Shown: positions 4,247 through 44,841 of the stretch, one piece after another
Numbering within the stretch: position 1 is the first letter of the stretch
Layout: each line of letters opens with the position of its first letter
From: Spartobacteria bacterium
GTDB lineage: Bacteria > Verrucomicrobiota > Kiritimatiellia > RZYC01
Direction: 5' to 3'
DNA length: 64,000 bases
NCBI GenBank assembly: GCA_009930475.1
Contig: RZYC01000007.1
Location: forward strand, 6,188 to 70,187
The notes under the pieces: generated by a model
The model's database searches: none
What the model was told of the DNA's origin: nothing
What the model saw: only the letters and a program-made list of their open reading frames with translations
Program-made: the position numbers and the translations under genes

Positions 4247-5209
4247 ATGAAACATCGAATTAAACAATCCCCCCTCGCCTACTACCATTGCATGAGCCGA
4301 ATTGTCGGTCGTCAAATGCTGCTGGGCGAAATAGAAAAAGAACACATGCACTCTCTGATCCGACGCATTGAAGGCTTCACAGGGGTGCGTGTTCTGACCT
4401 ATGCAATCATGACAAATCATGTGCATCTACTCCTTGAAGAGCCTGATAGAGATACGGTTATTTCGGACGAAGAATTCAACCGACGGATGACATTCCTTTA
4501 TTCGGAGGCGGAGTTGGTTGACTTGAAAGAGCGCTGGGCGATGTGGGATGCGGCCAGTGTCGAAGCCGACAAGAGACGCTATCTGGTGCGAATGCACGAT
4601 ATCAGTGAATTCATGAAGCAATTAAAGCAGCGATTTTCTCGCTGGTACAATCAAAGGAATCAGCGATCAGGTGCATTGTGGGATACACGGTTTAAAAGCG
4701 TATTAGTCCAACCGGGATTACCATTACGAACGGTTGCGGCGTACATTGAAATGAATCCTGTTCGGGCAGGCATGGAAAAAAGTCCCCACTTCTACCGCTA
4801 TTGCGGCTTTGGGGAAGCCATTGGCGGAAATTCAAAAGCACGCGAGGGCATTCGCCTGATCACTAAATCGATGGATACCACATTGCATACCTGGCATGAA
4901 GTGTCAGCCCATTATTTGGAACGGATTCTAATGTATGATGACGTACGAAAACACCCGGAACAGGCATGCACTGATCACGATTATCTGCGCAGCAAGCTTG
5001 GTAATAAACTGAAACTGACCGATTTCGAACGACTTCTGTGTCGATGCCGTTACTTTACAGATGGACGGATTATTGGCAGCCGCGCCTTTGTTGACGCATA
5101 TTTTGAGGAACACAGACATGATTTTGGAACCAGGCGAATTTGCGGTGCGCGAAAAATCAAAGGTGGCTGGGATGCTCTTTTTGCGATAAGGGAACTTGTC
5201 GACTGGTAA
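4247..5209 (+). CDS. RAYT-like Y1 (HUH) tyrosine transposase, copy 1 (320 aa)
   Basis: YYHCMSRIVGR, HUH motif YAIMTNHVHLLL, GALWDTRFKSVLV, catalytic-Tyr motif AAYIEMNPVRAG. Confidence 0.9.
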   Translation: MKHRIKQSPLAYYHCMSRIVGRQMLLGEIEKEHMHSLIRRIEGFTGVRVLTYAIMTNHVHLLLEEPDRDTVISDEEFNRRMTFLYSEAELVDLKERWAMWDAASVEADKRRYLVRMHDISEFMKQLKQRFSRWYNQRNQRSGALWDTRFKSVLVQPGLPLRTVAAYIEMNPVRAGMEKSPHFYRYCGFGEAIGGNSKAREGIRLITKSMDTTLHTWHEVSAHYLERILMYDDVRKHPEQACTDHDYLRSKLGNKLKLTDFERLLCRCRYFTDGRIIGSRAFVDAYFEEHRHDFGTRRICGARKIKGGWDALFAIRELVDW

Positions 5210-5317
5210 CATCTATCATTTGACTTTTCCCTGTGATGCCTTAATAGTTCACTTTTACTTTGAGTTTATTTTTATGGAGCATCTTTTCTCAAACATACGA
5301 AATACGCAAGGATTCAC

Positions 5318-6067
5318 ATGACGTTCATACCCATTTTTCCAGCACCTGCCGCCTTGGTTTTCTCGCTGATGGAAAGTAGTGGACCAGGAAAGATCATCAT
5401 TTTAGTATTGGTCATTGCGTCCATTTTTGCATGGACTGTAATGATTTCGAAAGGACTAGATCTCTATAGTGTCAAACAGAAGAATCAACAGTTTAAAGAA
5501 GCATTTAAAGCCTACAACAATCCCACAACACTTCATGATCGCCGCACACAACTCAGCGTATGTCCACTTAGTGTCGTTTATTTTACGGGCTGCGAGAACC
5601 TGTATAAACTCATCGAAGAAATTGACGCGGCCAGAACGACGGACTCCGTACTAACGCAACCGCTTGGTTCATGGGATGACGACAAAACACATATCACGCC
5701 AAGCCAAATGGAGCTGGTTCGCAACCAAATTGATACGGAAACAGCGAATCAATATATAAAACTTGAGCAACACATGGGGATTCTCGCCAGTGCCGTAAGC
5801 ACCAGCCCCTTTTTAGGACTGCTCGGCACCGTATGGGGTGTTATGGAAGCATTTAGCGGCATGGCGGTTACGGGATCGGCGACATTGTCATCGGTCGCTC
5901 CGGGAATATCCAGTGCTCTGCTGACGACCATCGTTGGTCTGATTATCGCTATTCCATCTGCCATTGGATATAATTACCTATCCAACTGTATTCACAATCT
6001 TGGCATTGATATGGAAAATTTTGCAGATGAATTAACCACACGCATACACATTCAATTTGTCAAATAA
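5318..6067 (+). CDS. MotA/TolQ/ExbB proton channel protein
   Basis: LASAVSTSPFLGLLGTVWGVMEAF...VAPGISSALLTTIVGLIIAIPSAIGYN; AAGGA RBS before ATG. Confidence 0.92.
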   Translation: MTFIPIFPAPAALVFSLMESSGPGKIIILVLVIASIFAWTVMISKGLDLYSVKQKNQQFKEAFKAYNNPTTLHDRRTQLSVCPLSVVYFTGCENLYKLIEEIDAARTTDSVLTQPLGSWDDDKTHITPSQMELVRNQIDTETANQYIKLEQHMGILASAVSTSPFLGLLGTVWGVMEAFSGMAVTGSATLSSVAPGISSALLTTIVGLIIAIPSAIGYNYLSNCIHNLGIDMENFADELTTRIHIQFVK

Positions 6068-6091
6068 ACCATCCCGGCAGAGGCGCTACAC

Positions 6092-6502
6092 ATGAAACGG
6101 AAGCACAAACTGACCCGGGCAAGGCCAATCAGCGAGATTAATCTGACCCCGTTGATGGATTTGACGTTCATCCTCCTCATCACCTTCATTATCACTTTTC
6201 CTCTCATTGAACAGGGCATTCCCGTCAACCTGCCTCAAGGACAGGCCGAAGAACTCGACCCAGAAAAAACGCGCACCATTACATTGGATATCAGCGGGCA
6301 GGTGTATCTGGATGACCAGCCCATTGGAAAAGAGGCTTTAACCACGGAAATGAACACGCTGGCTCAGGCAAACCCCGAAATGATCATACTGGTACGAGCC
6401 GATGAAACCCTTAAATACGGCACAGTCGTAGACATCATGCGCATACTGAATCAAGCCGGCATGTCGAAGGTTGCACTGGTTACCCGTGCAGACAACGGTT
6501 AG
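6092..6502 (+). CDS. ExbD/TolR biopolymer transport protein
   Basis: EINLTPLMDLTFILLITFII, IPVNLP, VRADETLKYGTVVDIM. Confidence 0.92.
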   Translation: MKRKHKLTRARPISEINLTPLMDLTFILLITFIITFPLIEQGIPVNLPQGQAEELDPEKTRTITLDISGQVYLDDQPIGKEALTTEMNTLAQANPEMIILVRADETLKYGTVVDIMRILNQAGMSKVALVTRADNG

Positions 6503-6510
6503 TACGTAAA

Positions 6511-7374
6511 ATGGATAAGACGTTTAAAACATCTTTCAAAGTCAGTGCAATAGTGCATTCCTGCATTATTTTACTTTTGATTTTTATCCCCTTAATTCGC
6601 GGATGCATTGAAAAACTGCATCGTAAACCCCGTGAAATAGTCACTTTTGTAAGCTTGCAACAGGCACCTCCAGCGCCGGTCATCACAGAACCTGAACCCA
6701 AACCGGAATCACCCAATCCAAAAGAATCTATACCCGACAACATCAAAAAGATGCCTGAGCCCAAACCGTCTCCCACGCCCGTCCCCACAAAAAAAGCAAC
6801 GGCGACAGCGCAACCGACTATAACACCCACACCAACAGCGACGGCAGTAGCAACGGCGACAGCGACAGCAAAGCCATCCAGCACACCTAGACCACAACCA
6901 ACGGCCACACGAAAACCAAAGCCAAAGCCGACAAAAAAACCGATTCCTCGTCCAAAACCACGCATCATTTCGCGAAAGACACCCATGCCCCGCATTACGC
7001 AAAATGATATTCGGGATCTGCTTTCATCAGAACTATCATCCAGTCCGTCTCAAAACACGAGTAGCAGAAGCAGTGCAGGAAGCACCTCGACCACTCCACA
7101 GTGGTATTATCAGAACATCCAGCAAACCATGTACAACAACTGGAACCAGCCAACCAGTCTCACCGCCGGGATAGGACGCGTCGTGGACGTCAGACTGCGA
7201 ATAAACCGCGACGGATCAATCGCTTCTAAACGCATTACAGCCCCATCCGGCATCGGCGCACTAGATCGTTCTGTACAGGATGCACTTGATAAAACAGCGC
7301 GACTAAGCCCGCTTCCTTCTTCCATTAATGAACCCTACTTAGATATCACCGTTGAATTCATTTTAGAAAGATGA
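6511..7374 (+). CDS. TonB/TolA-like energy transducer
   Basis: N-terminal TM with SxxxH (SAIVHSC), long Pro/Thr/Lys-rich linker, C-terminal TonB_C-like domain (W..P...V.LRINRDGSI...SG..ALD.SV..A). Confidence 0.85.
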   Translation: MDKTFKTSFKVSAIVHSCIILLLIFIPLIRGCIEKLHRKPREIVTFVSLQQAPPAPVITEPEPKPESPNPKESIPDNIKKMPEPKPSPTPVPTKKATATAQPTITPTPTATAVATATATAKPSSTPRPQPTATRKPKPKPTKKPIPRPKPRIISRKTPMPRITQNDIRDLLSSELSSSPSQNTSSRSSAGSTSTTPQWYYQNIQQTMYNNWNQPTSLTAGIGRVVDVRLRINRDGSIASKRITAPSGIGALDRSVQDALDKTARLSPLPSSINEPYLDITVEFILER

Positions 7375-8393
7375 CCCAAATAACAAAAAAGCATTTCTCG
7401 CGAGGCATATTAGACCACATTAACCAGGTGCTAGGCCATGCATCCAGATCTCCCAGGGTAGGATTGGCTCTCGGGTCAGGAGCCGCACGTGGCTGTGCTC
7501 ATTTCGGAGTCATCGCCGCATTAAAAGAAGCGGGCATCCCCATTCACTGCATTGCCGGAACAAGCGCGGGCGCACTGGCAGGCGCATCGCTGGCATGCGG
7601 AACACTGGACGCCTTTGAAAAACGTGTACGATCACTTACGCTGAAAGACGTACTCTTTTTCTTCTCAGAACTACCGCTCAATCGTCAGGGATTAATCGAA
7701 GGGCGCCGCGTCATGGAATTCGTCCGTGAATTTATTCCGGTCGAACGCATCGAAGACCTGAGCATCCCGTTTCGATGCATTGCAACTGGGTTACAAACCG
7801 GCGAACCCATGGTATTTGATTCGGGCAACGTATTAGATGCTGTTCGCGCAAGTATCTCCATTCCCGGACTGTTTGTCCCTGTTCAGCGCAACGATAAATG
7901 GCTTATCGACGGTGCCATGTGTAATCCTGTACCCGTCGATCAGGTAAGGGAAATGGGTGCGGACTTCGTCATCGCAGTCGACGTAAACCAGCCCCACTCC
8001 AATCCTGATCCTCCCTCCCCCGCAGCATCGTTGGCGGAAAAATCCGACGAAGAGAAAACGACACCGGTTCCGTTCACCCCCATAAAAACAAAGCTCCAGG
8101 CATTGTTCTCACAAATTGAGTTCCCCCCGTGGAACCACAATACAGAGCAAAACAGTTCCAACCACCAGCCATTGAACATGATCGAAGTATCGCTGGTTGC
8201 TCTTCACCTTATGGAGGCTAGGCTGTCCCGTCTACAACTAACATTGCATCCACCAGATTTACTGATCGAACCTCACGCGTTTGACATCAACGTATTTGAA
8301 TTTTACCGAGCCAGCGAAATCATTGAACGCGGGCATGCCATCGCGCAACAGAGCTTGTCGTCTTTTCCTGCATTGCATCCCGATCACGACTAG
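7371..8393 (+). CDS. Patatin-like phospholipase (RssA/NTE family)
   Basis: GLALGSGAARG, GTSAG nucleophile motif, RASISIPGLF, LIDGA; ATGA overlap with the tonB-like gene. Confidence 0.92.
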   Translation: MTQITKKHFSRGILDHINQVLGHASRSPRVGLALGSGAARGCAHFGVIAALKEAGIPIHCIAGTSAGALAGASLACGTLDAFEKRVRSLTLKDVLFFFSELPLNRQGLIEGRRVMEFVREFIPVERIEDLSIPFRCIATGLQTGEPMVFDSGNVLDAVRASISIPGLFVPVQRNDKWLIDGAMCNPVPVDQVREMGADFVIAVDVNQPHSNPDPPSPAASLAEKSDEEKTTPVPFTPIKTKLQALFSQIEFPPWNHNTEQNSSNHQPLNMIEVSLVALHLMEARLSRLQLTLHPPDLLIEPHAFDINVFEFYRASEIIERGHAIAQQSLSSFPALHPDHD

Positions 8394-8451
8394 CTCCCAC
8401 CCCATGCACCATTAATCGACGGAATGAGATTTCCAATATTAATTTCGCTGA

Positions 8452-8488
8452 TGTCAATTTAAAATTTATAGTTAGTCTGATTTATTAG
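8452..8488 (-). repeat. Orphan copy of the RAYT-upstream unit (21-bp box, N9, ATTGACA) with no downstream gene
   Basis: Minus strand reads CTAATAAATCAGACTAACTAT-AAATTTTAA-ATTGACA; near-identical to the triplet at 50111-50229; lies between convergent genes. Confidence 0.7.
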
Positions 8489-8531
8489 GCGTGGGCGGGG
8501 CGGGCGAATCATTCTACCCGAAGCCTACGTT

Positions 8532-9086
8532 TTAGAATGAAACATTTGGAGCCTGTTCGGCACCTTCGACAGCTTCGAATGGCTTACGCGGGTTGAAGCC
8601 CATCATTCCGGCAAAAAAGACGGTGGGAATCTTGCGGATTCTGACGTTATAACCGCGAACGGCCTCATTATAACGACGACGTTCAACGGATATCCGATTT
8701 TCTGTCCCAGCAAGTTCGTCTTGGAGCGCCATGAAATTCTGGTTCGCTTTTAAGTCGGGATAATTTTCGGATACAACAATTAATCGGCCAAGAGCACTTT
8801 CAAGCATAGAACCGGCACGGGATTTATCTTCCTGCGTTTTGGCTGAGCCCCATTGACTGCGCAAACGGGTAATCTCTTCCAACAGTTCTTTTTCATGAGA
8901 GGCATAACCCTTTACCGTATTGACTAGATTGGGAATTAGGTCAAAGCGCCGTTGTAAAACGGTTTCTACATTGGCCCATGCGGTATTACAGGATTCGTCT
9001 TGTGCGACCAGTCCATTATACTGGCCAAAAAGCATCATGCCCATGACCACCGCCACTGCCAAAATAATCAATAATACTTTATTCAT
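8532..9086 (-). CDS. lemA: LemA family protein
   Basis: YNGLV...AWANVETVLQRRFDLIPNLVNTVKGYASHE...ENYPDLKANQNF..LQDELAGTENRISVERRRYN. Confidence 0.95.
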   Translation of the reverse strand: MNKVLLIILAVAVVMGMMLFGQYNGLVAQDESCNTAWANVETVLQRRFDLIPNLVNTVKGYASHEKELLEEITRLRSQWGSAKTQEDKSRAGSMLESALGRLIVVSENYPDLKANQNFMALQDELAGTENRISVERRRYNEAVRGYNVRIRKIPTVFFAGMMGFNPRKPFEAVEGAEQAPNVSF

Positions 9087-9822
9087 AACGTACTCCTATG
9101 CTGGTTTCCTTAAATTTGAGTGCGTCGACCGCGTTGATAACACACTCAATCGTCCGCATGAATGCGGAAAATACATTTTCGGCCTCTTTCGCTGTGATGG
9201 CACGGATTCCGTCCCGATGTTCCTGAATTTTGCGAATCGCTCCTAAATCAAAGGGGACATAGCGCGATAATTGCTCGATGGCTTCAAATTTTTTGGGCGG
9301 GACATCTTCGCGCTGATATAATCGCAAAACGGCTTTAAAAAGAGAAAAAAAGGACGATGATGACTCATCCAGTAACGCGATGATCTGTTTGGGTTTGGCT
9401 CCAGTAAGCAAAAACCGTTCTCTGAGCAGGATCAATTTCCCCCTCAGCTCTCGCTCCAGCTGCAAGCGCAAATGGGAATCCTCCAGAACCAGTTCCGCAA
9501 ACAGATCCTCTCCATAAAGGAGACGATGGCATTGCATAATATCAGAAAACTCTACGGGAAACGCGTCGGCCGAGGAAATCAGCTGGGCTTTTGTAAATAG
9601 TAAAGGGGAGGGATTCCCCTGTTTCGTCCAGCGCATCGCCATGGGGGAGAGCCTTTTCAGAATATCCAAATTCATCTCTGAAAGAATAATGAGTATATTG
9701 TAATCCGATTTTTTCTCATTGTAATCGCCGGCCGCCTGCGATCCGTACAGAATGACCGACACCAAATTACGTCCGAGCAATCGCTCCAGCTCGTGTGAAA
9801 AGTATCCACTGTCCATATTCAT
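9079..9822 (-). CDS. Nucleotidyltransferase-fold protein (LemA/TPM-associated)
   Basis: SVILYGSQAAGDY...SDYNILII pol-beta-type motif; sits between the TPM and lemA genes. Confidence 0.75.
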   Translation of the reverse strand: MNMDSGYFSHELERLLGRNLVSVILYGSQAAGDYNEKKSDYNILIILSEMNLDILKRLSPMAMRWTKQGNPSPLLFTKAQLISSADAFPVEFSDIMQCHRLLYGEDLFAELVLEDSHLRLQLERELRGKLILLRERFLLTGAKPKQIIALLDESSSSFFSLFKAVLRLYQREDVPPKKFEAIEQLSRYVPFDLGAIRKIQEHRDGIRAITAKEAENVFSAFMRTIECVINAVDALKFKETSIGVRYE

Positions 9823-9840
9823 ATAAGCATTATCCCTTCC

Positions 9841-10659
9841 TTACCAATCCCTGGAAGCACCGCCGCCACCCGACTGACCACCGCCAAAACCACCGAAACC
9901 GCTGCCGCCAAAACCGCCGCCAAAACCGCCATTCCCGCGTCCGCCGCCACCTTGCAGGGAAGACAGCAAAAATAAAGCCAGCCATGGATGACGAATCAGT
10001 TGGTAAATTATAAAAATGGAAAAAAGAAACATAAATATTTTTTTGTACCAGGGCAATGAGGCCCGCTGCTGCGTATCGATAAAACCCGGGGCAACGAGCC
10101 GACAGACATCTGACGCACCTTTATTGACCACCAAAGCGGGAGCCATACCGTCCCGCAATGCCTGCACCATCTTCTGTTCCAATGTGTCAAAGGCTGACAT
10201 ATCGGACAGCCCCAGAGCTGCGTTATAAATAATGCGCGCCTGCAGCTCACGTTTATTAACGTACAGAAGGATACCTGACCGTTTATTCAGCTGCCATTTC
10301 TCATACAGGAACTGCAGCTGCTCATCGGGATCATGAATAGAATCCCTTGAGGTGAAAATAACAACGCGTATGCGCGTTTTCAGCTCCAGCTGATGTAAAA
10401 GCTGTTCCCAGCGACGGGCGTCCTCTCGCTTGAGAAGGTGACCATCATCATTAACCAGACCGTGGTATCTCGCCTGTTCCAGCTGTGCCTGAGACTGGAC
10501 AGGAGCGAGCAAAAAAAAGACAAGCAGGAGAAAGCCGATGCGGCGGAAGAGTATACTCATCGTTTTAAATATATATGGCGTAATGCGAATCATAATGAAG
10601 GAATTTTGGCGTATGATTTCATTTATGCAAGATAATTCCCTATATCCCGGTGTGCCCAA
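9841..10659 (-). CDS. TPM domain protein with Gly-rich C-terminus (start uncertain, possibly ~10593)
   Basis: VNDDGHLL, GILLYV, C-terminal TM followed by GGGFGGSGFGGFGGGQSGGGGASRDW typical of TPM/YgcG family. Confidence 0.85.
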   Translation of the reverse strand: MGTPGYRELSCINEIIRQNSFIMIRITPYIFKTMSILFRRIGFLLLVFFLLAPVQSQAQLEQARYHGLVNDDGHLLKREDARRWEQLLHQLELKTRIRVVIFTSRDSIHDPDEQLQFLYEKWQLNKRSGILLYVNKRELQARIIYNAALGLSDMSAFDTLEQKMVQALRDGMAPALVVNKGASDVCRLVAPGFIDTQQRASLPWYKKIFMFLFSIFIIYQLIRHPWLALFLLSSLQGGGGRGNGGFGGGFGGSGFGGFGGGQSGGGGASRDW

Positions 10660-10668
10660 AAACGTGAT

Positions 10669-11940
10669 TCATCTCTTATGAAAGAAGATTTCGTATAGCA
10701 GAGACCAATGGGTAAAACGGTGTTCCTCGGCATCGCTTAAAATATCACCCTTGTGCGCCGTGATTTCCTGATTCACCATGCGCTCCAAGAGCTGTTTAAC
10801 AACATAAATGTTGCCATCCATGGCCTGCAATGCACACTCCGCCATTAGATACACTTCATCCGCCGAACACGAATCCTTCACCGGTTCCAGCATTTTTGCC
10901 GCAGCTTTGCGTTTGCCCTGCCGCATGAAGCTTAAGCTCATCAACCAGTGGGCCCGTACATGATCTATGATCTCATTTGGCATTTTCCGCTCATAATCAA
11001 TGGGGGTATGCAGAACCTCATCCAGCATTTTTGGTATAAGCACATCAAAAGTATAGTGCTCTCGAACTTTTTTCATGCCGGCAGCCGCTATTTGCTCCCG
11101 TTCCGCTTCATGTGTGAGGTAATAATTGATTTTATCCAGTAATTCCACCTCGTCGTGATACACCGCCAACTCGTGATCCGGCTCAAATATCTGATCCACA
11201 TCCTCCCGATAATCCGTCAGGATAAATCCCCCGCAGGCCATGGTATCAAAGAGCCGAACGGGTAGCGAGGTGACCAACTGTTCATTTGTGATGTTGATAT
11301 TTATCTTCGACTGACTGTAAATCCGCGGGCAATCCTTACGATTATCCGCATGTCCATGAAATAGCACATTCGGATGCGCGAGAGATCTCCACAGGTCATT
11401 GCCGAACAAATGAATACACTGTCCCTGATCAGCAAGGCGACGAAGCATGTCCTCGCGACGGGGCGTATGTGATGCGACAAAAGTAACATCATATTGATAG
11501 GATCCAGGCTGACGGGTATAGACCAGCGGATTCGTTCCAAAGTGCTGATATTTAACATTCAGAAAGCCCATTTCACAAAGCGGCTCAATATAATGCCGAT
11601 CCCACAAATATATGGAAGAGCAATGACGAATAAGCAGGTGGGATTCAGCCAGCAGTCTTAGCGGATCATCATAAAACCAATAGATAACCTTCACCGGGTT
11701 GGGGTAAACGGCCAAAATATGCGGCAGGATACCGCAGTGATCCACAGTAAAAATAATATCCGGTTCGGTCTTAACCATCGCATCGGCAAACACAACCAGT
11801 GCATGATACCATTCAGCGGGCAGATCGAGAACAGAAACCGTATGTCCAGCGCGTACCAACGTCTGCTGGACATCAACCAGTGTATGCGGCAGTACACGAC
11901 CTGCCCCCTTAAAGGATAGAATTTTCAGTGGCACAGTCAT
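10669..11940 (-). CDS. CgeB-like glycosyltransferase (GT-B, Glyco_trans_1_2)
   Basis: YSQSKININ, RLFDTMACGGFILTD, HEAEREQIAAAG..KV..HYTF. Confidence 0.8.
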   Translation of the reverse strand: MTVPLKILSFKGAGRVLPHTLVDVQQTLVRAGHTVSVLDLPAEWYHALVVFADAMVKTEPDIIFTVDHCGILPHILAVYPNPVKVIYWFYDDPLRLLAESHLLIRHCSSIYLWDRHYIEPLCEMGFLNVKYQHFGTNPLVYTRQPGSYQYDVTFVASHTPRREDMLRRLADQGQCIHLFGNDLWRSLAHPNVLFHGHADNRKDCPRIYSQSKININITNEQLVTSLPVRLFDTMACGGFILTDYREDVDQIFEPDHELAVYHDEVELLDKINYYLTHEAEREQIAAAGMKKVREHYTFDVLIPKMLDEVLHTPIDYERKMPNEIIDHVRAHWLMSLSFMRQGKRKAAAKMLEPVKDSCSADEVYLMAECALQAMDGNIYVVKQLLERMVNQEITAHKGDILSDAEEHRFTHWSLLYEIFFHKR

Positions 11941-12833
11941 GCGCTCTGCTCCCCCCTCAGGCGCGGATCAAAGACATCTCGCAAGGCATCGCCAATCACA
12001 TTAAACGCCAGCACAAGCAGGAAAATGGACAAGGTCACAAACGTCATTTCCCACCAGATGCCCTGCCATAAACGCAACCGGGCATTGTTAATCATGATGC
12101 CCCAGGAGGGTTCATTCTGCACACCGATACCCAGGAAACTGATAAAAATCTCCGTCGCCACCGCCGCAGGAAAGCGCAGCGAAAAAACAATAATGACAAT
12201 ATGCGATACGTTCGGAAGAATATGAAAAAACAGGATACGGACATGGGAATAACCCAGTGCCCGGGCCGCTCGTACATAGGCTCTGTTTTTGTGCTTAATA
12301 ACCTCTGCCCGAATCAGTCGACAGATCCCCACCCATGTCGTAAGGCCTATGCCGCAGTATATACCGGGTAAACCCTTTCCCACCGCAATAGATATAGCCA
12401 AAATAAACAACAGCCCCGGCATGGAAGCAACACTTGAATACAGCCAGACAATCAGCGCATCCGTACGTCCACCAAAGTAACCGCCGATGCACCCCAGGAC
12501 AACACCGATGGGGATAGCAATACAAGAAGTAATAATACCGACCTGAAAGGCAATACGGCTACCCTGCACCACACGTGAAAAGACATCGCGTCCCAGATTA
12601 TCCGTTCCGAAAATATGCGAGGGCGAGGGTGTTTCATAACGTTGCTCCATATTAATTTTCTGATAAGCCGGCGTCTGATCCTGCATCCGATAAAACCAGT
12701 AAACTCCTTCGCCATACAGCGCTGTCAACGTAAACAGCGCAATGAGCAGCAAACAGAAGCGATTCAACTTGCGCCGCCATAGCATTCCACCCGCCGACCG
12801 CCAAATAGACGAACTGTGACTCAATGCATTCAT
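11937..12833 (-). CDS. Oligopeptide/dipeptide ABC transporter permease (OppC/DppC-like)
   Basis: HIFGTDNLGRDVFSRVVQGSR, EAA-like YVRAARALG, HILPNV, SFLGIG, GDALRDVFDPR. Confidence 0.92.
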   Translation of the reverse strand: MNALSHSSSIWRSAGGMLWRRKLNRFCLLLIALFTLTALYGEGVYWFYRMQDQTPAYQKINMEQRYETPSPSHIFGTDNLGRDVFSRVVQGSRIAFQVGIITSCIAIPIGVVLGCIGGYFGGRTDALIVWLYSSVASMPGLLFILAISIAVGKGLPGIYCGIGLTTWVGICRLIRAEVIKHKNRAYVRAARALGYSHVRILFFHILPNVSHIVIIVFSLRFPAAVATEIFISFLGIGVQNEPSWGIMINNARLRLWQGIWWEMTFVTLSIFLLVLAFNVIGDALRDVFDPRLRGEQSA

Positions 12834-14140
12834 GACAACCGAACCCTCGGGTCAACCCACGCATAGCACAAGTCCGTCAGCAGGTTGACGCCCACATAAA
12901 AAAATGCCCCAAACACCACCACCGCCTGAATCACCGCAAAATCCGACGAATTTATTGCGTTGATACTAGCACTGCCCAACCCCGGAACACCGAAAAAACT
13001 CTCCAGCAGCAGGCTGCTCGTAAAAATAAAAGGCAAAGCCATACTGATCTGCGTCACTACCGGAATCATAGCATTACGAAGTACGTGACGTGTCAGAACC
13101 CTTGCGGTGCCTGCCCCTTTGGCATACGCCGTGCGTACATAATCATGATGCATTTCATCCAGCATCACCGTCCGATAAAACCGCACATCCCGTCCCAATC
13201 CAGTGACAATTCCAATAAGAACCGGCAGCACTAAATAAACCACCGATTCAAACCCCCAAATGGGAAACCAGCCCAGTTTAAAAGCAAACAGATATTGACC
13301 ACCAACAATCCATATAATGTAATTCACACTCATCAAGGCTGTTGCAAGAACAACACTCACTCGGTCAAACCATTTGCCCCGCTGCCAGGCACTGACCAAT
13401 GCCAACGCCAGTGCCATAATCGTTGTCCCGAATAATATAGGAATATTCAGCGCAAGCGACGGACCCGCACCCCGACGCAAAATCGCCAGCACATCCTCCC
13501 CCGTTTCCGACGAAACCCCAAAATCCCCCTGCAGCAGACGACGGACATAAAACCAGAGCTGACTGTCAAATGCATGCCCAACACCGCGTTCAAGATAAAT
13601 CATTCGTAAATGGATCGGCGCGGCACTGGTTAAGCTCGGTGCGGCCAATTCTTTGGCCGCTCCCGTCTTAAACACAATCGACATCTTACGCACCTTCACA
13701 CTCGCCGGCAGCGCCTCTTGACTTTCCGATTCAACCCCCGTCAACAACACCGGAGCCATGGATGAATATTCCATGGTCAACCGATACCGGTTGTCCTGAT
13801 ACAAAGGAAACACCAACGGCAATGGCGTCGTCATATCCGACGGAAGGACAACCATATCCCCTTTCTGCATCACATGAGGTAAACGATCCCAGTCACCAGC
13901 ACCAGTCAAAAAATCACCACCGCGAAAAGCCAATGTTTCCACCCACTTCCCGCAAATTAGCGGCAGATTATAGCCATGTGTCTCATTATACTCCTCAATC
14001 GCCTGTGGTTTGGCATTCTGTCCCAGGACCAGAGAGGCAGGGCTGCCCGCAACCACATGAAACAGCAGAAACGTCAACAGCAACACTCCGAACAAAATAG
14101 GAATCATGCGCAGCACACGCAGCAGAACATAACGAATCAT
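12830..14140 (-). CDS. Oligopeptide/dipeptide ABC transporter permease (OppB/DppB-like) with a large extracytoplasmic insertion
   Basis: GDFGVS, DYVRTAYAKG, HVLRNAMIPV, LESFFGVPGLG, DLCYAWVDPRVRL. Confidence 0.92.
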   Translation of the reverse strand: MIRYVLLRVLRMIPILFGVLLLTFLLFHVVAGSPASLVLGQNAKPQAIEEYNETHGYNLPLICGKWVETLAFRGGDFLTGAGDWDRLPHVMQKGDMVVLPSDMTTPLPLVFPLYQDNRYRLTMEYSSMAPVLLTGVESESQEALPASVKVRKMSIVFKTGAAKELAAPSLTSAAPIHLRMIYLERGVGHAFDSQLWFYVRRLLQGDFGVSSETGEDVLAILRRGAGPSLALNIPILFGTTIMALALALVSAWQRGKWFDRVSVVLATALMSVNYIIWIVGGQYLFAFKLGWFPIWGFESVVYLVLPVLIGIVTGLGRDVRFYRTVMLDEMHHDYVRTAYAKGAGTARVLTRHVLRNAMIPVVTQISMALPFIFTSSLLLESFFGVPGLGSASINAINSSDFAVIQAVVVFGAFFYVGVNLLTDLCYAWVDPRVRLS

Positions 14141-14200
14141 TCGCAGTTCCTCTCATCACTCAAATTGGCCGGCCACTTTTTCACGATTACACCCAGTTAA

Positions 14201-14287
14201 AAAAGTTCCAATCATTGGAACTTTTATTTTAAAAACGTCCAATCATTGGAACTTTTGTTTCAGAAAGTTCCAATCATCGGAACTTTT
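14201..14287. repeat. Tandem array of three 25-bp REP-like palindromes, 31-bp period (14201, 14232, 14263)
   Basis: AAAAGTTCCAATCATTGGAACTTTT / AAAACGTCCAATCATTGGAACTTTT / GAAAGTTCCAATCATCGGAACTTTT with 6-nt linkers ATTTTA and GTTTCA; 60 bp downstream of the RAYT copy 2 stop. Confidence 0.92.
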
Positions 14288-14347
14288 ATAAATAGCCCTT
14301 TTTCCACCAATTGGCAATATCCGTCGACAACGAATGAATCAAGCGGA

Positions 14348-15361
14348 TCAACACCAGTGCCCCAGATCACGAATCGTGTATAGATTCAGCCATCCCCCTC
14401 GCATTTTCCGTGCTCCCGTTTTTCGCGACGCGCTGAAATAATCCTGATTCTCGACAAAAAACGCCTCAACAAAGGCCTGCGACCCAAAAACCTGCCCATC
14501 TGAAAAATATCGATTTTTACATTGCAGCCGCTCAAAGTCCGAGATCTTCGTCCGGTGCCTAAGCTTATCCGGAATCATATCCCTATCCAACATCGCAAAA
14601 TGCGGATTTTTACGAACCTCATCATACATCAGAACACGTTCCCAATAAATGGATGACGCAGCACTCCACTCATGAATCTGCTCTTTCACCCGAACCGCAT
14701 CGTCCAGTGGTTCCACCCCTGACACCAACGTCATAATTCCTTTCCGCGCAGCATCTACGCCCCCCATGGCTTCACCCAAACCGCAAAACCGATACGTTTT
14801 TGGATCAGCCACGATACCCGCACGTACCGGATTCATTTCAATATACGAAGCCATCGTGCGCAAGGCCGCACCATCTTCCACCAGCACACTTTTAAAACGA
14901 TGTTCCCACAAGGTTCCGCACCGCCCCGTACGCCGATTATACCAGCAGGAAAACCGTTGCTTCACCTGCTTCATAAACTCGCTAATATCATGCATGCGTA
15001 TCAGATACCGATGCTTATCCTCTTCAACCAGCTCCGTCAACCCCGTCCATTCCCATTCCGCCCAGTGCTCCCGAATTTCATCTACCTCCGCTTCTGTATA
15101 TAAACAACGCAGCCGACGTAGCAGCTCGTCATCATCTATCGCATGCACCGCATCGCGATCCGGCTCCTCCAACAATAAGTGAACATGATTTGTCATCACC
15201 GCATAAGTTAGCACACGTACACCGGTAAAACCCTCCACTTTCCGGATTAATCGCCGCATGTGCTCTTTTTCGACATGGCCCATCAACATCGCTCGGCCCA
15301 CAATACGCGACATACAATGATAATAAGCCAGATGATCTCTTTTAATTCGTTTACGTCTCAT
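14348..15361 (-). CDS. RAYT-like Y1 (HUH) tyrosine transposase, copy 2 (337 aa, most divergent)
   Basis: YYHCMSRIVGR, YAVMTNHVHLLL, GTLWEHRFKSVLV, ASYIEMNPVRAG; start reassigned to ATG 15361 by homology and promoter geometry. Confidence 0.9.
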   Translation of the reverse strand: MRRKRIKRDHLAYYHCMSRIVGRAMLMGHVEKEHMRRLIRKVEGFTGVRVLTYAVMTNHVHLLLEEPDRDAVHAIDDDELLRRLRCLYTEAEVDEIREHWAEWEWTGLTELVEEDKHRYLIRMHDISEFMKQVKQRFSCWYNRRTGRCGTLWEHRFKSVLVEDGAALRTMASYIEMNPVRAGIVADPKTYRFCGLGEAMGGVDAARKGIMTLVSGVEPLDDAVRVKEQIHEWSAASSIYWERVLMYDEVRKNPHFAMLDRDMIPDKLRHRTKISDFERLQCKNRYFSDGQVFGSQAFVEAFFVENQDYFSASRKTGARKMRGGWLNLYTIRDLGHWC

Positions 15362-15428
15362 ACCGTCAAGATAAACACATGATTCGAGGTGTTGCAAGCA
15401 ATATAATATAGTAATAGTCTGGAGATAT
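15362..15428 (-). promoter_or_regulatory. Putative leaderless promoter of RAYT copy 2 with upstream 21-bp box
   Basis: Minus strand: ATATCTCCAGACTATTACTAT (15428-15408), N9, C, TTGCAA (15397-92), N18, TATCTT (15373-68), N6, ATG. Confidence 0.6.
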
Positions 15429-15446
15429 TATTATTTATTTTTGACA

Positions 15447-16508
15447 TCAGTCGTGATAATGACAGGCTACACTCCGGTCGGAAGAGACAGTAACCAGTTC
15501 GGGGGAAAGTAAATCGCACGCATCTTTTCGGTGTTTACAACGTGAGGCGAAAGCGCATCCATCAATCTTTTTTGTGGGATCAGGGACAGAACCGGGGATG
15601 CTTTCAATCCACTGTTGGTGTCCATGCAGTCGGGGTACGGCATGGAGCAATGCCTGCGTGTAGGGATGCATAGGGCTGTTCAGGACTGAAAGGACGGATC
15701 CGCTTTCAACAATTTTACCTGCATACATGACGTAGATATAATCGGCCACATCGGCGATCAGTCCCAGATTGTGGGAAATGAAGAGAATCGTGGTTCCGCG
15801 CTCGCGATTGATCGTGCGAAGCAACTGCATAATTTCTGCCTGAATCGTCACATCCAGTGCCGTGGTGGGCTCGTCGGCAATCAGCACTTCCGGGTCACAG
15901 GCCAATGCCATGGCTATCATCACCCGCTGCTGCTGGCCGCCGCTCAATTCACAGGGATAGCGGCGCCCTATTTTTTGCGGGTCGGGCAACTGAACTAATT
16001 CAAACAGATGCGCCAGCTCACTCTGATCGGCTCTGGTTTTCCGGTGCAAATAAATCGCTTCAGCGACCTGTGCACCAATACGAATCACTGGATTCAGCGA
16101 TCGACCCGGCTCCTGAAATACATACGCGACACGATGACCACGCAATCGCTGAAGTTCGCGTGACGACATATCCATCAGATTTTGGCCGGCGATTTCAATG
16201 CCGCCATGAACCTGACACGCCGGTCTGTCCGGCAATAATCGGGTCAGCGCAAATGCCGTAACACTTTTCCCGCAGCCACTCTCCCCGGCCATGGCACAAA
16301 AAGACCCTTTTTTAATCGAAAAGCTGACATCTCTAACGGCCGCAACGACTCCCTGCCCACTGTTAAATGTCACCGATAAATGATTCACATCGACAACGAA
16401 CTGTTCATTTTTTCCCATAGAGACATCCTGATTTTTCATGCGATGATATTCATGGTTATCTTGCTGACCCGCAAGCACTATATTTATTTGATTTCCATTA
16501 TTGGACAA
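15447..16508 (-). CDS. Oligopeptide ABC transporter ATP-binding protein (OppD/DppD-like; true start probably downstream)
   Basis: Walker [17 protein letters not shown], Walker [21 protein letters not shown]-terminal Cys cluster GCAFASRC...VACH. Confidence 0.93.
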
Positions 16509-16562
16509 CTCGGAATTTCTATATGATTGACAGCTACAGCGAGCCTATGAAAAGATTTCCGC

Positions 16563-17303
16563 ATGAATGAGATACAAACGCCATCCGGTTTATACATTGT
16601 CGCCACGCCCATCGGGAATCTGGCCGACATCACTTTGCGTGCGTTACAAATCCTGAGGGATGTCGACTTTATTGTGGCAGAAGATACGCGTCACAGCCTG
16701 AAACTGCTCAATCATTATGAAATAAAAAAGAAATGTTACAGTTGCCATCAGTTCAATGAAGCCTCGCGCATTGACCGTATCAAAGACGAATTAGGGCAGA
16801 ACAGACGCATCGCTCTGCTAACCGACGCAGGGACGCCATGCATTTCCGATCCCGGCAGTCGACTGGTACACGCTGTACGCGAAGCCGAGCTGCCTGTTTT
16901 CGCCATTCCTGGTGCCTGTGCCGCCGTAGCGGCCTATTCTGTCAGCGGAATCCTATCGGGACAGTTTCATTTTGAAGGCTTTCTCCCCCACAAAAAAGGG
17001 CGAAAAACACGACTGGAACAGATTGCCTCCCTGCCGCTCCCCGTTGTTTTATATGAATCACCCCACCGACTGGCCCGTCTATTAAAAGAACTGGTTCAAT
17101 ATATGGGGTCAGACAGACCCATTCACGTCCTGAAAGAACTGACAAAAATGCACGAACAGTATTTTTACGGGAAGACAGAGGTATTACTCAACCAGCTTGC
17201 CACGGAAAAACATAAGGGAGAATTTGTTATTATAACGGAACCGGGGCATACCATTGACAAAGCAGACAAATCCGTGCTAGTTTCTCCAGACAGTATGAGT
17301 TAG
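16563..17303 (+). CDS. rsmI: 16S rRNA (cytidine1402-2'-O)-methyltransferase
   Basis: LYIVATPIGNLADITLRA, AEDTR, TDAGTPCISDPG, YESPHR, KELTKMHE, KGEFV. Confidence 0.95.
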   Translation: MNEIQTPSGLYIVATPIGNLADITLRALQILRDVDFIVAEDTRHSLKLLNHYEIKKKCYSCHQFNEASRIDRIKDELGQNRRIALLTDAGTPCISDPGSRLVHAVREAELPVFAIPGACAAVAAYSVSGILSGQFHFEGFLPHKKGRKTRLEQIASLPLPVVLYESPHRLARLLKELVQYMGSDRPIHVLKELTKMHEQYFYGKTEVLLNQLATEKHKGEFVIITEPGHTIDKADKSVLVSPDSMS

Positions 17304-17340
17304 AGTACTAAAATGATCCGTGTTAACAGGCAAAAATAAT

Positions 17341-17883
17341 ATGACGAGTTCACAGGCAAAGCAGGAACAACTTTTCGCATCCATTTGCGGAAGTGCTGCT
17401 TATATCACAGTTAAGCAAAGGGGATCCTTCCGTGTCGGCCATATCCTCAAACAGTTCGCTGTTGCAGCCATTGATGCCAACGTAACGACGTTAATATTTG
17501 ACATGCAGGAATGTAAAGGACTGGACAGTACATTCATGGGAGTTTTAGCGGGTCTGTCAGGTCGGGCGGGAAAAAGCGGCGGGCGGGTGATCCTTATTCA
17601 TGTATCCCCGCATATTAATGCTCTGCTCAGCACACTGGGTCTGGACACATTGGTGCAGATACATTTACAGAATGAAGTTCCAAATGAAATTCGGCGAATT
17701 ATTCCTGCCTGTGACCAGCAGCTGAATGAAATCAAGGGAGAAACCAGTCAGCTGGATTCCTCTCGCACCATGCTGGATGCACATCAGACACTGGTGGAAA
17801 TGATCCCTGAAAACCTCGCGAAATTCAAAGATGTTCTCGAACTGATGAAGGCCGACATGGCGCGGCACAGTTCAGGGAAATGA
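17341..17883 (+). CDS. STAS-domain anti-sigma factor antagonist with C-terminal extension (alternative GTG start 17320)
   Basis: IFDMQECKGLDSTFMGVLAG STAS phospho-Ser motif; LLSTLGLD. Confidence 0.8.
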   Translation: MTSSQAKQEQLFASICGSAAYITVKQRGSFRVGHILKQFAVAAIDANVTTLIFDMQECKGLDSTFMGVLAGLSGRAGKSGGRVILIHVSPHINALLSTLGLDTLVQIHLQNEVPNEIRRIIPACDQQLNEIKGETSQLDSSRTMLDAHQTLVEMIPENLAKFKDVLELMKADMARHSSGK

Positions 17884-17899
17884 AAGGACGTTCATTCTC

Positions 17900-19342: not shown

Positions 19343-19377
19343 TAATTTTGCCGTTTATTGGGAGGTAAAAAACAATT

Positions 19378-19795: not shown

Positions 19796-19834
19796 GTGAT
19801 TGATAACGGGACATTTAAAAGGATATCTGAATAA

Positions 19835-30506: not shown

Positions 30507-30572
30507 ATAATAGAACAGTCTTACTATATGTTTTTTCTTGACCTTTATCACTGGATTGCGCATCGTGCAGAC
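30507..30572 (+). promoter_or_regulatory. Putative leaderless promoter of RAYT copy 3 with upstream 21-bp box
   Basis: ATAATAGAACAGTCTTACTAT (30507-27), N9, C, TTGACC (30538-43), N17, CATCGT (30561-66), N6, ATG 30573. Confidence 0.65.
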
Positions 30573-31535
30573 ATGAAAAACCGCATTAAACGTACGTCTT
30601 TAGCTTATTATCACTGCATGAGCCGAATTGTTGGCCGCCAGATGTTGCTGGGCACAAGTGAAAAAGAATATATGACGGCTCTGCTTCGCCGCATCGAAGG
30701 GTTTACCGGCGTGCGCATTCTGACCTATGCCCTTATGACCAACCACTTTCATCTGTTGCTGGAAGAACCTGATCGCGGTACGGTTATTTCCGATAGGGAA
30801 TTTCAGCGTCGAATGGCCTGCATTTATTCAATGGACGAACTAAATGAGCTGTATGAGCGATGGGCCTCGCTGGACGACGAAAGCACTGCCTTGGAAAAAC
30901 AGCGTTATCTGTCACGGATGCATGACATCAGCGAGTTTATGAAGCAAGTGAAACAACGGTTTTCCAGATGGTACAATCGGATGAATCATCGTTCGGGCAC
31001 GCTGTGGGATGCACGATTCAAGAGTGTACTGGTGGAGCCGGGCACACCGTTGCGAGTTGTTGCGGCCTATATTGAGATGAATCCCGTGCGGGCGGGAATG
31101 GAAACGGAGCCACACTTCTATCGCTACTGCGGTTTTGCCGAGGCGATGGGAGGCGGGTCAAAGGCGAGGGACGGCATCCGGACGATTGCCTCGTTCATGG
31201 ACACGGCCGCACCTGACTGGACGACCGTATCCGCGCACTACCTAGAACGCATTCTCATGTACGACGACGTGCGGAATCATCCGGAATGTGCCTGCACTGA
31301 TCATGATTATTTGCGAGAGAAACTGGGTCAAAAGTTGAAACTGACTGATTTCGAACGATTACTATGCCGCAGTCGCTATTTTATTGATGGACGTATCATC
31401 GGCAGCAAACAATTTGTTGAGCAGTTTTTTGTCGAACACAGGGATTATTTCGGGCAAAAACGAATTTCTGGAGCGCGAAAGATCAAGGGTGGCTGGACTG
31501 GGTTGTTTGCCATCAGAGACCTGGTGGACTGGTGA
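30573..31535 (+). CDS. RAYT-like Y1 (HUH) tyrosine transposase, copy 3 (320 aa)
   Basis: YYHCMSRIVGR, YALMTNHFHLLL, GTLWDARFKSVLV, AAYIEMNPVRAG; start ATG 30573 aligns with the other copies. Confidence 0.9.
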   Translation: MKNRIKRTSLAYYHCMSRIVGRQMLLGTSEKEYMTALLRRIEGFTGVRILTYALMTNHFHLLLEEPDRGTVISDREFQRRMACIYSMDELNELYERWASLDDESTALEKQRYLSRMHDISEFMKQVKQRFSRWYNRMNHRSGTLWDARFKSVLVEPGTPLRVVAAYIEMNPVRAGMETEPHFYRYCGFAEAMGGGSKARDGIRTIASFMDTAAPDWTTVSAHYLERILMYDDVRNHPECACTDHDYLREKLGQKLKLTDFERLLCRSRYFIDGRIIGSKQFVEQFFVEHRDYFGQKRISGARKIKGGWTGLFAIRDLVDW

Positions 31536-34107: not shown

Positions 34108-34165
34108 CGGAAAGTTCCAGACATTGGAACTTTCCGCCTGAAAAGTTCCAATGTCTGGAACTTTT
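34108..34165. repeat. Inverted doublet of 25-bp REP-like palindromes, 31-bp spacing (34110, 34141)
   Basis: CGGAAAGTTCCAGACATTGGAACTTTCCG then AAAAGTTCCAATGTCTGGAACTTTT; the two cores are exact reverse complements; between convergent genes. Confidence 0.9.
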
Positions 34166-34187
34166 TTATTTTGGACAAAAAGGCGGT

Positions 34188-43131: not shown

Positions 43132-43238
43132 TGCATTCCCTACTCCTTCTAAAACAAACAGACAATCAGGCCGAAGAAGCCGGCCAATCAACAAGCATGT
43201 CCCCGCCACCTTCTTCGACCCGATTCACACCAAGCAAA

Positions 43239-43736
43239 TTACAAAGATGCTAATGCCGACGCATAATCAGGTTCCTGCGTGATTTCCGGAACCAGTTCCG
43301 TGTATTTGACGACACCCTTTTCATCAATAATAATGACCGCCCTTGCCAACAGTCCCTTGACAGGCGAATCAACAATACCCAGTCCATAGGACTCTGCAAA
43401 TGCCGGATTTCTGAAAGCAGAAAGCGACTCAACATTCTCAAGCCCTTCGGCTCCGCAAAAACGAGCATGCGCAAACGGCAAATCCATGGAGACACAGAGC
43501 ACAACCACATCAGATCGCCCGGCCGCCTCCGCATTGAAACGACGCACCGAAGCGGCGCAGACAGGAGTATCTACACTAGGAAAAACATTTAATACGATGA
43601 TTTTCCCCTTCCAGTCGGCCAATGCCACATCACTCAGATCCGTTTTTGTCAATGCAAACGCAGGAGCAATACTTCCCGTCGCCGGTAATTCCCCGCAGGT
43701 CTGAACACTGTTTCCTTCTAACGCAGTCGTTGCCAT
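43239..43736 (-). CDS. tpx: Thiol peroxidase (atypical 2-Cys peroxiredoxin)
   Basis: [32 protein letters not shown]. Confidence 0.96.
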
Positions 43737-43812
43737 ATTTCATCCTCCTTATGTGATTAATTAGAACGGAGCACAGTTTATAATAAAAAACTCGAATTAT
43801 ACAACCAGCAAA

Positions 43813-43878
43813 TATATTATTCTGACTTACTATCATTTTCCTCTTGACCCGCCCCTGCAAATACCCCATCGTACCTGC
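43813..43878 (+). promoter_or_regulatory. Putative leaderless promoter of RAYT copy 4 with upstream 21-bp box
   Basis: TATATTATTCTGACTTACTAT (43813-33), N9, C, TTGACC (43844-49), N17, CATCGT (43867-72), N6, ATG 43879. Confidence 0.65.
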
Positions 43879-44841
43879 ATGAACCAACGAATAAAACACA
43901 GTCACTTAGCCTACTACCACTGCATGAGCCGCATCGTCGGCCGCGAAATGTTGCTTGGTAAAGCAGAAAAACAACACATGCATGCATTGATACGCCGTAT
44001 TGAAGGATTTACCGGCGTACGCGTATTAACCTATGCAATCATGACAAACCATGTACATCTGCTACTTGAGGAGCCTGATCGCAACACGGTGATCTCCGAT
44101 GAAGAATTTCGGCGGCGCATGAAGTACCTGTATACAGAAACTGAACTTTCGGAACTGTATGAAAGATGGGACATGTGGACACCGGAAAGCGTAGCCATGG
44201 ACATGCATCGCTACCTCATTCGCATGCACGATATCAGTGAATTCATGAAGCAATTAAAACAGCGGTTTTCTCGCTGGTACAACAAGCGTAATCAGCGGTC
44301 GGGAGCATTGTGGGATACGCGGTTTAAGAGCGTGCTGGTAGAGCCGGGGACTCCGCTTCGAACGGTGGCCGCATACATCGAGATGAATCCTGTACGGGCC
44401 GGCATGGAAAAAGAACCTCATTTCTATCCATTTTGCGGCTTTGCAGAAGCTATGGCGGGAGGTAGAAATGCGCAAACAGGGATACGCATTATTGCAGCAT
44501 CTATGGAGTCTGAATCACAGCATTGGGATGTTGTTTCTTCCCATTATTTCGAACGCATTCTGATGTACGACGAGGTACGTAATCACCCAAAACGAGCCCG
44601 CACAGACCACGATTATCTGCGGGAACAACTAGGCAAACGACTGGAACTAACCGATCATGAACGATTGCGATGCCGTAGTCGTTATTTCACGGACGGACGC
44701 ATCATCGGCAGCAAAGAATTTGTGGAGGAATACTTTCAAGAACACAAGCAGCACTTTGGATCAAAACGAACGTCCGGCGCACGAAAAGTCAAAGGCGGCT
44801 GGAATAATTTGTTTGCTCTGCGCGAGCTGATGGACTGGTAA
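43879..44841 (+). CDS. RAYT-like Y1 (HUH) tyrosine transposase, copy 4 (320 aa)
   Basis: YYHCMSRIVGR, YAIMTNHVHLLL, GALWDTRFKSVLV, AAYIEMNPVRAG. Confidence 0.9.
   Translation: MNQRIKHSHLAYYHCMSRIVGREMLLGKAEKQHMHALIRRIEGFTGVRVLTYAIMTNHVHLLLEEPDRNTVISDEEFRRRMKYLYTETELSELYERWDMWTPESVAMDMHRYLIRMHDISEFMKQLKQRFSRWYNKRNQRSGALWDTRFKSVLVEPGTPLRTVAAYIEMNPVRAGMEKEPHFYPFCGFAEAMAGGRNAQTGIRIIAASMESESQHWDVVSSHYFERILMYDEVRNHPKRARTDHDYLREQLGKRLELTDHERLRCRSRYFTDGRIIGSKEFVEEYFQEHKQHFGSKRTSGARKVKGGWNNLFALRELMDW

Follow-up and report, generated by a model that had tools for sequence, protein, structure and literature searches.

Four genes encoding HUH/Y1 transposase-like proteins lie within 41 kb of a 64,000-nucleotide stretch of a Spartobacteria bacterium genome (assembly GCA_009930475.1, contig RZYC01000007.1, forward-strand positions 6,188 to 70,187). 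This whole stretch is called the window here, and all coordinates refer to it unless a contig is named. Copy 1 (4247..5209), copy 3 (30573..31535) and copy 4 (43879..44841) are on the plus strand and copy 2 (14348..15361) is on the minus strand. A preliminary description had called them intact, diverged genes resembling RAYTs (REP-associated tyrosine transposases, REP standing for repetitive extragenic palindrome), with copies 1, 3 and 4 colinear and exactly 320 amino acids long and copy 2 of 337. Open reading frame (ORF) listing, translation, alignment and tblastn bear this out: the four proteins matched only the four Y1 loci in the window and no fragment. The lengths of copies 2 and 3 are counted from ATG, the mechanical ORFs being 349 amino acids from an upstream TTG and 357 from an upstream GTG, respectively. 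Relative to the 320-residue copies, copy 2 carries insertions of 1, 2, 4 and 9 residues and one additional C-terminal residue. Aligned identity to copy 1 is 59% for copy 2, 75% for copy 3 and 74% for copy 4 (56–75% overall among the four ORFs), 138 alignment columns are invariant, and a recount from the translations gave the same 51 of the first 60 residues shared by copies 1 and 4. As described before, the HUH motif (residues 57–60, with H58 and H60; NHVH, in copy 3 NHFH) and YIEMNPVRAG (residues 166–175, with the catalytic Y166) are kept by all four. Their GC content, overall and at third codon positions, falls within the range of the 33 other genes of the window. An exact look-up of copy 4 and of P0002 found neither on record.

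The catalytic core is that of a Y1 transposase, with two additions. The Pfam family Y1_Tnp (PF01797) matches in two pieces, residues ~9–70 and 117–186 (44–55 bits against a cut-off of 23), because an insertion splits the domain. Two NCBIfam models stay under their equivalog cut-offs: REP_Tyr_transpos (NF047646) with 55.7–63.7 bits (cut-off 80) and transpos_IS200 (NF033573) with 19–25 bits (cut-off 55). H58, H60, Y166 and the Y---NP motif are invariant across 82 sequences, and an AlphaFold2 model of copy 4 built on this 82-sequence alignment reached a predicted local distance difference test score (pLDDT) of 90.1 and a predicted template modelling score (pTM) of 0.90. Foldseek against the PDB placed Escherichia coli TnpA_REP (4er8) first (E = 2e-6, TM-score 0.67 on the target), then the ISDra2, IS608 and IS200 transposases, with 2xm3 and 2a6o also among the matched folds. 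The catalytic residues are intact in all four copies, as is the fold according to the model, and the “RAYT-like” label holds for the catalytic core by its Y---NP motif and its best structural match.

The first addition to this core is a three-helix insertion of about 50 residues (~68–117) and the second is a mostly helical C-terminal extension of 134 residues (~187–320; both numbered as in copy 1). A conserved extension of this kind was noted before and is indeed present, and structure prediction gave it no Pfam or PDB relative: against Pfam there was no match even at E-values up to 10 and no helix-turn-helix (HTH) match, and the extension modelled alone matched no PDB fold (best E-value 0.7). 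Modelled alone it reached pLDDT 81 and pTM 0.50, against pTM 0.90 in the full-length context; this fall indicates that the extension probably packs on the core, and a separate free domain is disfavoured by the low pTM and by the missing PDB and Pfam matches. A phmmer search of 1.84 billion representatives (50%-identity library) with the extension returned 921 clusters, and wherever the matched protein was full-length the match lay at the C-terminus of a protein of ~320–385 amino acids. The extension is therefore a family-specific appendage and not a shuffled domain.

The preliminary description had found neither TnpB nor terminal inverted repeats (TIRs) nor a conserved right end, and we agree on each: no tnpB occurs among the neighbour genes of the four copies, the inverted repeats around each copy are short, unrelated pairs at chance level and none is common to the copies, and the 3′ flanks are unalike in DNA alignments. 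It had also stated that conservation ends at the stop codon. This is correct on the 3′ side and must be amended on the 5′ side, where a conserved box lies about 30 nt before the ATG. The box is found on the plus strand at 30516..30543 before copy 3 (CAGTCTTACTATATGTTTTTTCTTGACC) and at 43822..43849 before copy 4 (CTGACTTACTATCATTTTCCTCTTGACC), on the minus strand at 15393..15421 before copy 2 (CAGACTATTACTATATTATATTGCTTGCA) and, in a degenerate form, on the plus strand at 4190..4216 before copy 1 (CTGCCTTTTTATTATTTTTATCTTGATC, with TTGATC 30 nt before the ATG). Its layout was derived from eight ATG-anchored copies: the four of the window, two from a related metagenome-assembled genome (MAG; contigs L017 and L018, the prefix L numbering the related loci and contigs that we compared) and two of the 337-residue type, namely L023, from the same sequencing run as the strain contig L020 described below, and L025, from the run that holds the MAG’s contigs. 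An A/T-rich stretch is followed by C[A/T]GNCT[T/A]A, a T-rich spacer of 16–18 nt, and TTGACC or TTGCA. The ATG is separated from the box by 17 nt, a weak −10-like hexamer of the form nAnnnT (CATCGT in copies 3 and 4) and a further 6–7 nt (6 nt in those two copies).

The box stands at this fixed distance in 8/8 close copies, and no Shine–Dalgarno sequence is visible. As far as sequence can tell, such a layout points to a sigma-70-type promoter and to an mRNA that is leaderless or nearly so. A strict form of the pattern has seven matches in the window against ~0.4 expected by our own estimate: three before copies 2, 3 and 4, and four that are gene-less. The type of box co-varies with the subfamily of the gene (16-nt spacer and TTGACC in the 320-residue clade, 18-nt spacer and TTGCA in the 337-residue clade), as would follow from duplication of box and ORF together. 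The core of the box (CAGTCT or CAGGCT, a T-rich run, TTGAC or TTGCG) is also present before relatives in Opitutia (L003–L005) and Puniceicoccales (L007–L009, L012), with a shorter spacer of 8–10 nt.

The window paralogs differ by dN 0.19–0.36, with dS above 2 or not computable; dS is saturated and the duplications are therefore ancient. Selection on individual copies was measured against close strains from metagenomes. L020, a Logan contig from a wastewater metagenome, is colinear with window positions 2855–14843 at 97.9% identity and carries copy 1 and part of copy 2 at the window sites, and L029 is a contig covering copy 4 at 97.7% identity. The dN/dS ratio is 0.105 for copy 1 (18 substitutions), 0.145 for copy 4 (35 substitutions) and 0.14 for the partial copy 2 (3 substitutions only), far from 1; the corresponding values of 12 neighbouring genes are 0.03–0.33. 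In copies 1 and 4 together, 17 of 53 substitutions change an amino acid, where ~74% would do so under neutrality (binomial p = 2e-10). Copies 1 and 4 are under purifying selection as strong as that on neighbouring housekeeping genes, and the ratios of 0.105–0.145 reflect selection on terminal branches, where dead-end selfish copies would drift. The earlier proposal of purifying selection on an old multi-copy family, as opposed to a recent burst or decay of insertion sequences (IS), is upheld by these ratios, by the binomial test and by the saturated dS.

The copies are also fixed in position: all four are at the same sites in strains 2–3% diverged, and copy 3 is at the same site in four further metagenomes. 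A comparison with empty sites, put forward before as a way of defining the ends of the element, could be run in the metagenome strains; no empty site was seen in them, the apparent joints being cross-mapping of paralogs in the YIEMNPVRAG region, and the right end was not found. At 31059–31101, and at the same motif in the other copies, wastewater metagenome contig word depth over the 40-nt stretch coding for YIEMNPVRAG is ~13–14 times that of the flanks (at ≥88% identity). This stretch is nearly unchanged at the DNA level in many paralogs or community relatives.

That the family is a high-copy one, also proposed before, is clearest in a related genome. A homologue search returned 5,066 proteins, and among the best 120, from which copies were counted, at least 73 are paralogs from one MAG (“Spartobacteria bacterium”, locus tags EOL87_, GCA_009929845.1). 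Among the paralogs listed, 71 are 290 amino acids or longer, nearest-neighbour identity is 58–89% (median 80%), and no pair is ≥90% identical. Across 75 sequences, 93 columns are ≥95% conserved. A maximum-likelihood tree resolves several subfamilies, with copies 1, 3 and 4 in a “320-aa” clade and copy 2 in a “337-aa” clade; the latter holds a star-like group of ~20 copies found in the MAG only, with terminal branches of ~0.1–0.2. Judged from its topology, this group looks like the signature of a past burst, all products of which were retained. A narrow-pattern search for related loci in genome contigs gave 16 loci, none from the window genome or the EOL87 MAG; six come from one Puniceicoccales MAG, and other Verrucomicrobiota thus have several copies too. 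A tblastn search of a plasmid collection yielded no close relative, the best match being 30% identical.

A trace of how such units move may be kept in the Puniceicoccales MAG Pq454_bin37. In 3/4 of its loci a tandem arrangement is found, in which a box, leader and first 28–40 codons are followed by a box and the full gene. These stubs lie directly upstream of full-length Y1 genes at L007:2710-2990, L008:2746-3010 and L009:239-520. Stub-to-gene identities are 79, 82 and 91%, the 141-nt stub of L009 is in frame with its gene, and that of L007 is no nearer to its own gene than to other paralogs. The arrangement indicates that the 5′ end was at some time rearranged or received an insertion; no other direct trace of dynamics at the level of the unit was found.

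Taken together, these observations lead us to favour, with somewhat more confidence than doubt, the reading that this is a lineage-specific, massively expanded family of class-2 HUH/Y1 homologues of single-strand-DNA nucleases and transposases, the class to which TnpA_REP belongs, whose “box + ORF” units were dispersed in old bursts and are now retained by selection. Each copy would be a self-contained unit of ~1.05 kb, from the 5′ box to the stop codon, and the family would have grown by repeated dispersal of this unit in past bursts. Dispersal would most simply be catalysed by the enzyme itself, with the box as one recognisable (left) end. The box may double as a promoter and is probably the protein’s own putative binding or cleavage site, which would lead to autoregulation, and gene-less boxes could be derivatives or further targets of the family. 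Today the copies would be kept by selection on each of them, as domesticated or mutualistic genes and not as decaying IS.

Much of the same evidence can be read differently, as still-selfish, slowly transposing IS200-like elements whose left end is the box, whose right end lies inside the 3′ coding sequence and whose strong cis-preference keeps the lineages intact. The star-like clade of ~20 copies confined to one MAG and the tandem 5′ stubs in Puniceicoccales would suit such elements, as would the standing of Group 1 RAYTs, which correspond to subclass 2.1 of the published Y1 classification, as the RAYT group that most resembles IS (Bertels et al. 2017, PMC5581495). It is nevertheless hard to reconcile them with 73 listed MAG copies of which no pair is ≥90% identical, with a window free of Y1 fragments, with dN/dS of 0.10–0.15 on purely terminal, strain-level branches, with host-like composition and fixation in all strains sampled, or with a plasmid collection that holds nothing closer than the 30% match. 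A hint of exchange comes from the Y1 genes, for which the window species and the EOL87 MAG (L017, L018, L025) show 72–77% identity, while the only other well-aligned protein shared by the sampled loci, an Opp permease, is 51% identical and stands in a different context. The sampled loci have no housekeeping orthologues in common by which the distance between the two genomes could be calibrated. Since its context differs, the permease is probably not an orthologue, which leaves the exchange argument weak. We regard persisting selfishness as unlikely.

Gene-less boxes bear on the function of the box itself. One lies on the minus strand at 8453..8479 (CAGACTAACTATAAATTTTAAATTGAC), in the convergent gap between a patatin-like gene and lemA, is directed into the 3′ end of the former and is conserved in the L020 strain. 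The surrounding gap (8394–8531) varies more than any other stretch of the 12-kb strain comparison (7% mismatches and 26 gap columns, among them a 19-nt indel), and the box within it is unchanged. Three more stand in tandem on the minus strand at 50106..50232, with a period of 37–45 nt, between a CotH/LTD gene and a convergent glycosyltransferase gene. Outside the window there is one in the MAG contig (L018:2412-2438), which is followed by a perfect TTGACC-N16-TATAAT promoter, and one at L023:11262-11288. No Y1 remnant was found by tblastn beside the gene-less boxes of the window. Possibly they are antisense or small-RNA promoters, or relics of lost units.

Such sites may also point to fully domesticated, immobile paralogs forming one regulon, in which the box is a promoter plus the site of a host activator or alternative sigma factor, the copies arose by ordinary duplication and the proteins serve a host task in processing single-stranded DNA. 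The promoter geometry of all eight copies (a −35-like hexamer, 17 nt, nAnnnT, 6–7 nt, ATG) would be accounted for, as would gene-less boxes away from Y1 genes, one of them with a consensus −10, and selection and composition resembling those of housekeeping genes. In the window, however, no gene other than the Y1 genes is preceded by the strict box, whose remaining matches are at the two gene-less sites. Ordinary duplication would not easily produce dozens of dispersed single-gene copies with the stop codon as their exact end, and the star-like burst and the tandem 5′ stubs point elsewhere. An immobile regulon is, in our judgement, doubtful.

A 238-nt contig from one wastewater metatranscriptome, 97.5% identical, lies on copy 4 (44060–44297). 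It is the only RNA contig longer than ~35 nt on the 40 kb examined; there are three shorter partial matches in 1–20000, one of which is this very contig cross-mapping to copy 1. We take the contig on copy 4 as a hint of transcription.

The preferred reading of dispersed and retained “box + ORF” units has several observations against it. No empty site, recent duplicate or right end was found, and self-mobilisation is something that we only infer. An ordinary promoter that includes an activator site for some host regulator could account for the box as well, and the perfect TATAAT after the gene-less box of L018 is in line with this. Between strains, the box shows no more conservation than the sequence on either side of it, and four of the seven upstream differences before copy 4 fall inside it. 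Each of the four gene-less box sites follows closely on the 3′ end of a gene and is oriented back into that gene, a placement that the model leaves unexplained. The RNA evidence, finally, is one low-depth contig that could be DNA carry-over.

A further possibility, quite unlikely in our estimation, is a single-ended Y1 element in long-term symbiosis with its host: the unit would be nicked at its own box by the enzyme that it encodes and copied to new sites in rare bursts, and between the bursts host-level selection would keep every copy, since nicking or binding at boxes would be of some use. The paralogs would then be specialised, self-recognising nickases and not redundant transposases, and the gene-less boxes would suggest promoter control, the handling of conflicts between replication and transcription, or the marking of boundaries.

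The window also holds a family of 25-bp palindromes (AAAGTTCCAATSATTGGAACTTT) at 745–831, 14201–14291, 34110–34169 and 60922–60950, which form arrays with 31-bp spacing at gene 3′ ends. Of these, only the array at 14201–14291 adjoins a Y1 gene. An identical 17-mer palindrome core occurs in the MAG contig L017 (8–55) and in L023 (7–23), often at contig ends. With their flanking A- and T-runs at gene 3′ ends, the palindromes look like bidirectional terminators. It could be argued that they are REP substrates processed or mobilised by the Y1 enzymes, given that the window has four clusters, one of them 57 nt downstream of copy 2, and that the shared 17-mer shows both genomes to carry both families. 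Yet palindromes are near 1/4 copies only, and on one side, with the other clusters 2.6–16 kb from the nearest copy. They also lack the GTAG or CGTC foot and are terminator-like in their A- and T-runs, and RAYTs are typically single-copy. A REP/RAYT-type system is thus very improbable here.

The genes around the four copies are ordinary ones: PyrK-like, ExbB, Opp permease and ATPase, acyl-CoA synthetase, Tpx/AhpC, a giant CotH/LTD protein, LemA and a glycosyltransferase. Copy 2, its box and a three-unit palindrome array (together 14141–15446) lie between an oppD-like ATPase gene (15447–16508) and Opp permease genes (11937–14140) on the same strand. Copy 2 interrupts what appears to be a single Opp transporter operon, and the arrangement is the same in the 2%-diverged strain of L020. 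Directly downstream of copy 4, a gene at 44959–50001 encodes a secreted-looking protein of 1,680 amino acids with LTD, Fn3-associated/CHB_HEX_C and CotH domains and a Pro/Thr-rich C-terminal tail. The upstream neighbour is divergent in six of the eight close copies, copy 2 and L025 being located between co-oriented genes. The window gave no match in scans with Rfam or for tRNAs.

Several ideas on genomic organisation were rejected. The Y1 gene does not always head a co-directional operon: the next gene in L023 is convergent, and co-directionality is automatic in divergent gaps and carries little weight. A TIR-bounded unit with cargo, made of a plus-strand box, the Y1 gene with its cargo and an inverted box, fits copy 1 (4190 with 8453–8479) and copy 4 (43822 with 50106–50232) only; the additional box and the Y1 box face the same way in L018 and L023, and copies 2 and 3, L017 and L025 have no additional box. 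Synteny did not delimit the element either, as the Opp permease homologue in the MAG, 51% identical and in a different context, is probably not an orthologue, and the nearest relatives of PyrK, 57% identical, are too distant to define element ends. One Kiritimatiellae MAG has pyrK-pyrD without a Y1 neighbour.

In the published classification of Y1 transposases, the Y---NP motif defines class 2, the RAYT-like proteins (Table 1 in Quentin et al. 2018, PMC6006769). Subclass 2.1, identical to TIRYT/TIRtron (De Nocera et al. 2013, PMC3733652) and to RAYT Group 1 (PMC5581495), has a median length of 238 amino acids and no beta3:alphaC insertion (PMC6006769). It shares with the window family the NHVH and YIE[LM]NP motifs, a conserved C-terminal extension, the class-2 Y---NP and the lack of REPs. 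It differs in its length and missing insertion, as the window proteins have 320–337 amino acids and carry the insertion. Its C-terminus is HTH-like (Bac_DnaA_C, HTH_23/28), whereas the window family has no HTH or Pfam match there, and it is flanked by inverted repeats with a GGGGWSAS motif, whereas the window genes have no terminal inverted repeats.

Subclass 2.3 comprises proteins of 325 amino acids from Chromatiales and Alteromonadales, with NHYH, YVDLNP, a mean of 3.9 copies at 75% identity and no REP (PMC6006769). Its reference here was a 357-amino-acid “transposase” of Catenovulum adriaticum (WP_268076993.1), one of the Alteromonadales homologues that the tblastn of the plasmid collection yielded, with NHYH, WE and YVDLNP. 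In hhalign the family profile matched this protein with 99.3% probability over residues 1–210, the insertion being aligned. The two groups have in common a length of ~320–357 amino acids, a homologous helical insertion of ~50–55 residues between beta3 and alphaC, and several copies per genome with low intragenomic identity and no REPs. On the other hand, the NHYH, WE and YVDLNP of subclass 2.3 stand against NHVH, WD/WE and YIEMNP in the window family, which also lacks the 10-residue beta1:alphaA insertion of that subclass and shows three 3-residue gaps in the hhalign alignment where the subclass 2.3 protein has the additional residues. The alignment ends at about residue 210–224, leaving the distal C-terminal domains unaligned save for a short LTDFERLL/LIDYVELV likeness seen by eye only. 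Copy number also sets them apart (a mean of 3.9 at 75% identity against at least 73 in one Verrucomicrobiota MAG).

More distant systems share less. E. coli TnpA_REP/RAYT (4er8; Messing et al. 2012, PMC3479197) has the HUH and Y---NP motifs and is the best structural match, but it is ~165 amino acids long, single-copy and flanked by REPs or bacterial interspersed mosaic elements (BIMEs), whereas the window family is multi-copy without flanking REPs and reaches 56–64 bits against the cut-off of 80. The IS200/IS605 TnpA proteins (IS608, ISDra2, IS200) share the HUH/Y1 fold. They have a Y---Q motif and ~130–150 amino acids where the window family has YIEMNP and 320–337, and they come with subterminal hairpins at both ends, near-identical copies and often tnpB, none of which was found for the window genes. 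It had been asked whether the genes might belong to an already described IS200/IS605 subgroup with defined ends. They do not: the closest TnpA_Y1 subclasses are 2.1 and 2.3, neither of which has defined ends or a known function according to the authors (PMC6006769). On its motifs and insertions, the window family is a sister or intermediate lineage of these two subclasses, and a member of neither as defined. Our literature searches found no paper on such a Y1 expansion in Verrucomicrobiota or Kiritimatiellota.

RAYTs are the standard example of a domesticated Y1 transposase, one that has become a single-copy host gene, and IS200-type elements are the standard example of a selfish one. At least 70 intact, deeply diverged Y1 genes with a common 5′ box, under housekeeping-like selection where measured, fit neither picture. 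Should the copies prove to act on their own boxes, the bulk co-option of a transposase family could be studied here in a tractable system, which would also help to explain the function of the large class-2 TnpA_Y1 subclasses with C-terminal domains (2.1 and 2.3).

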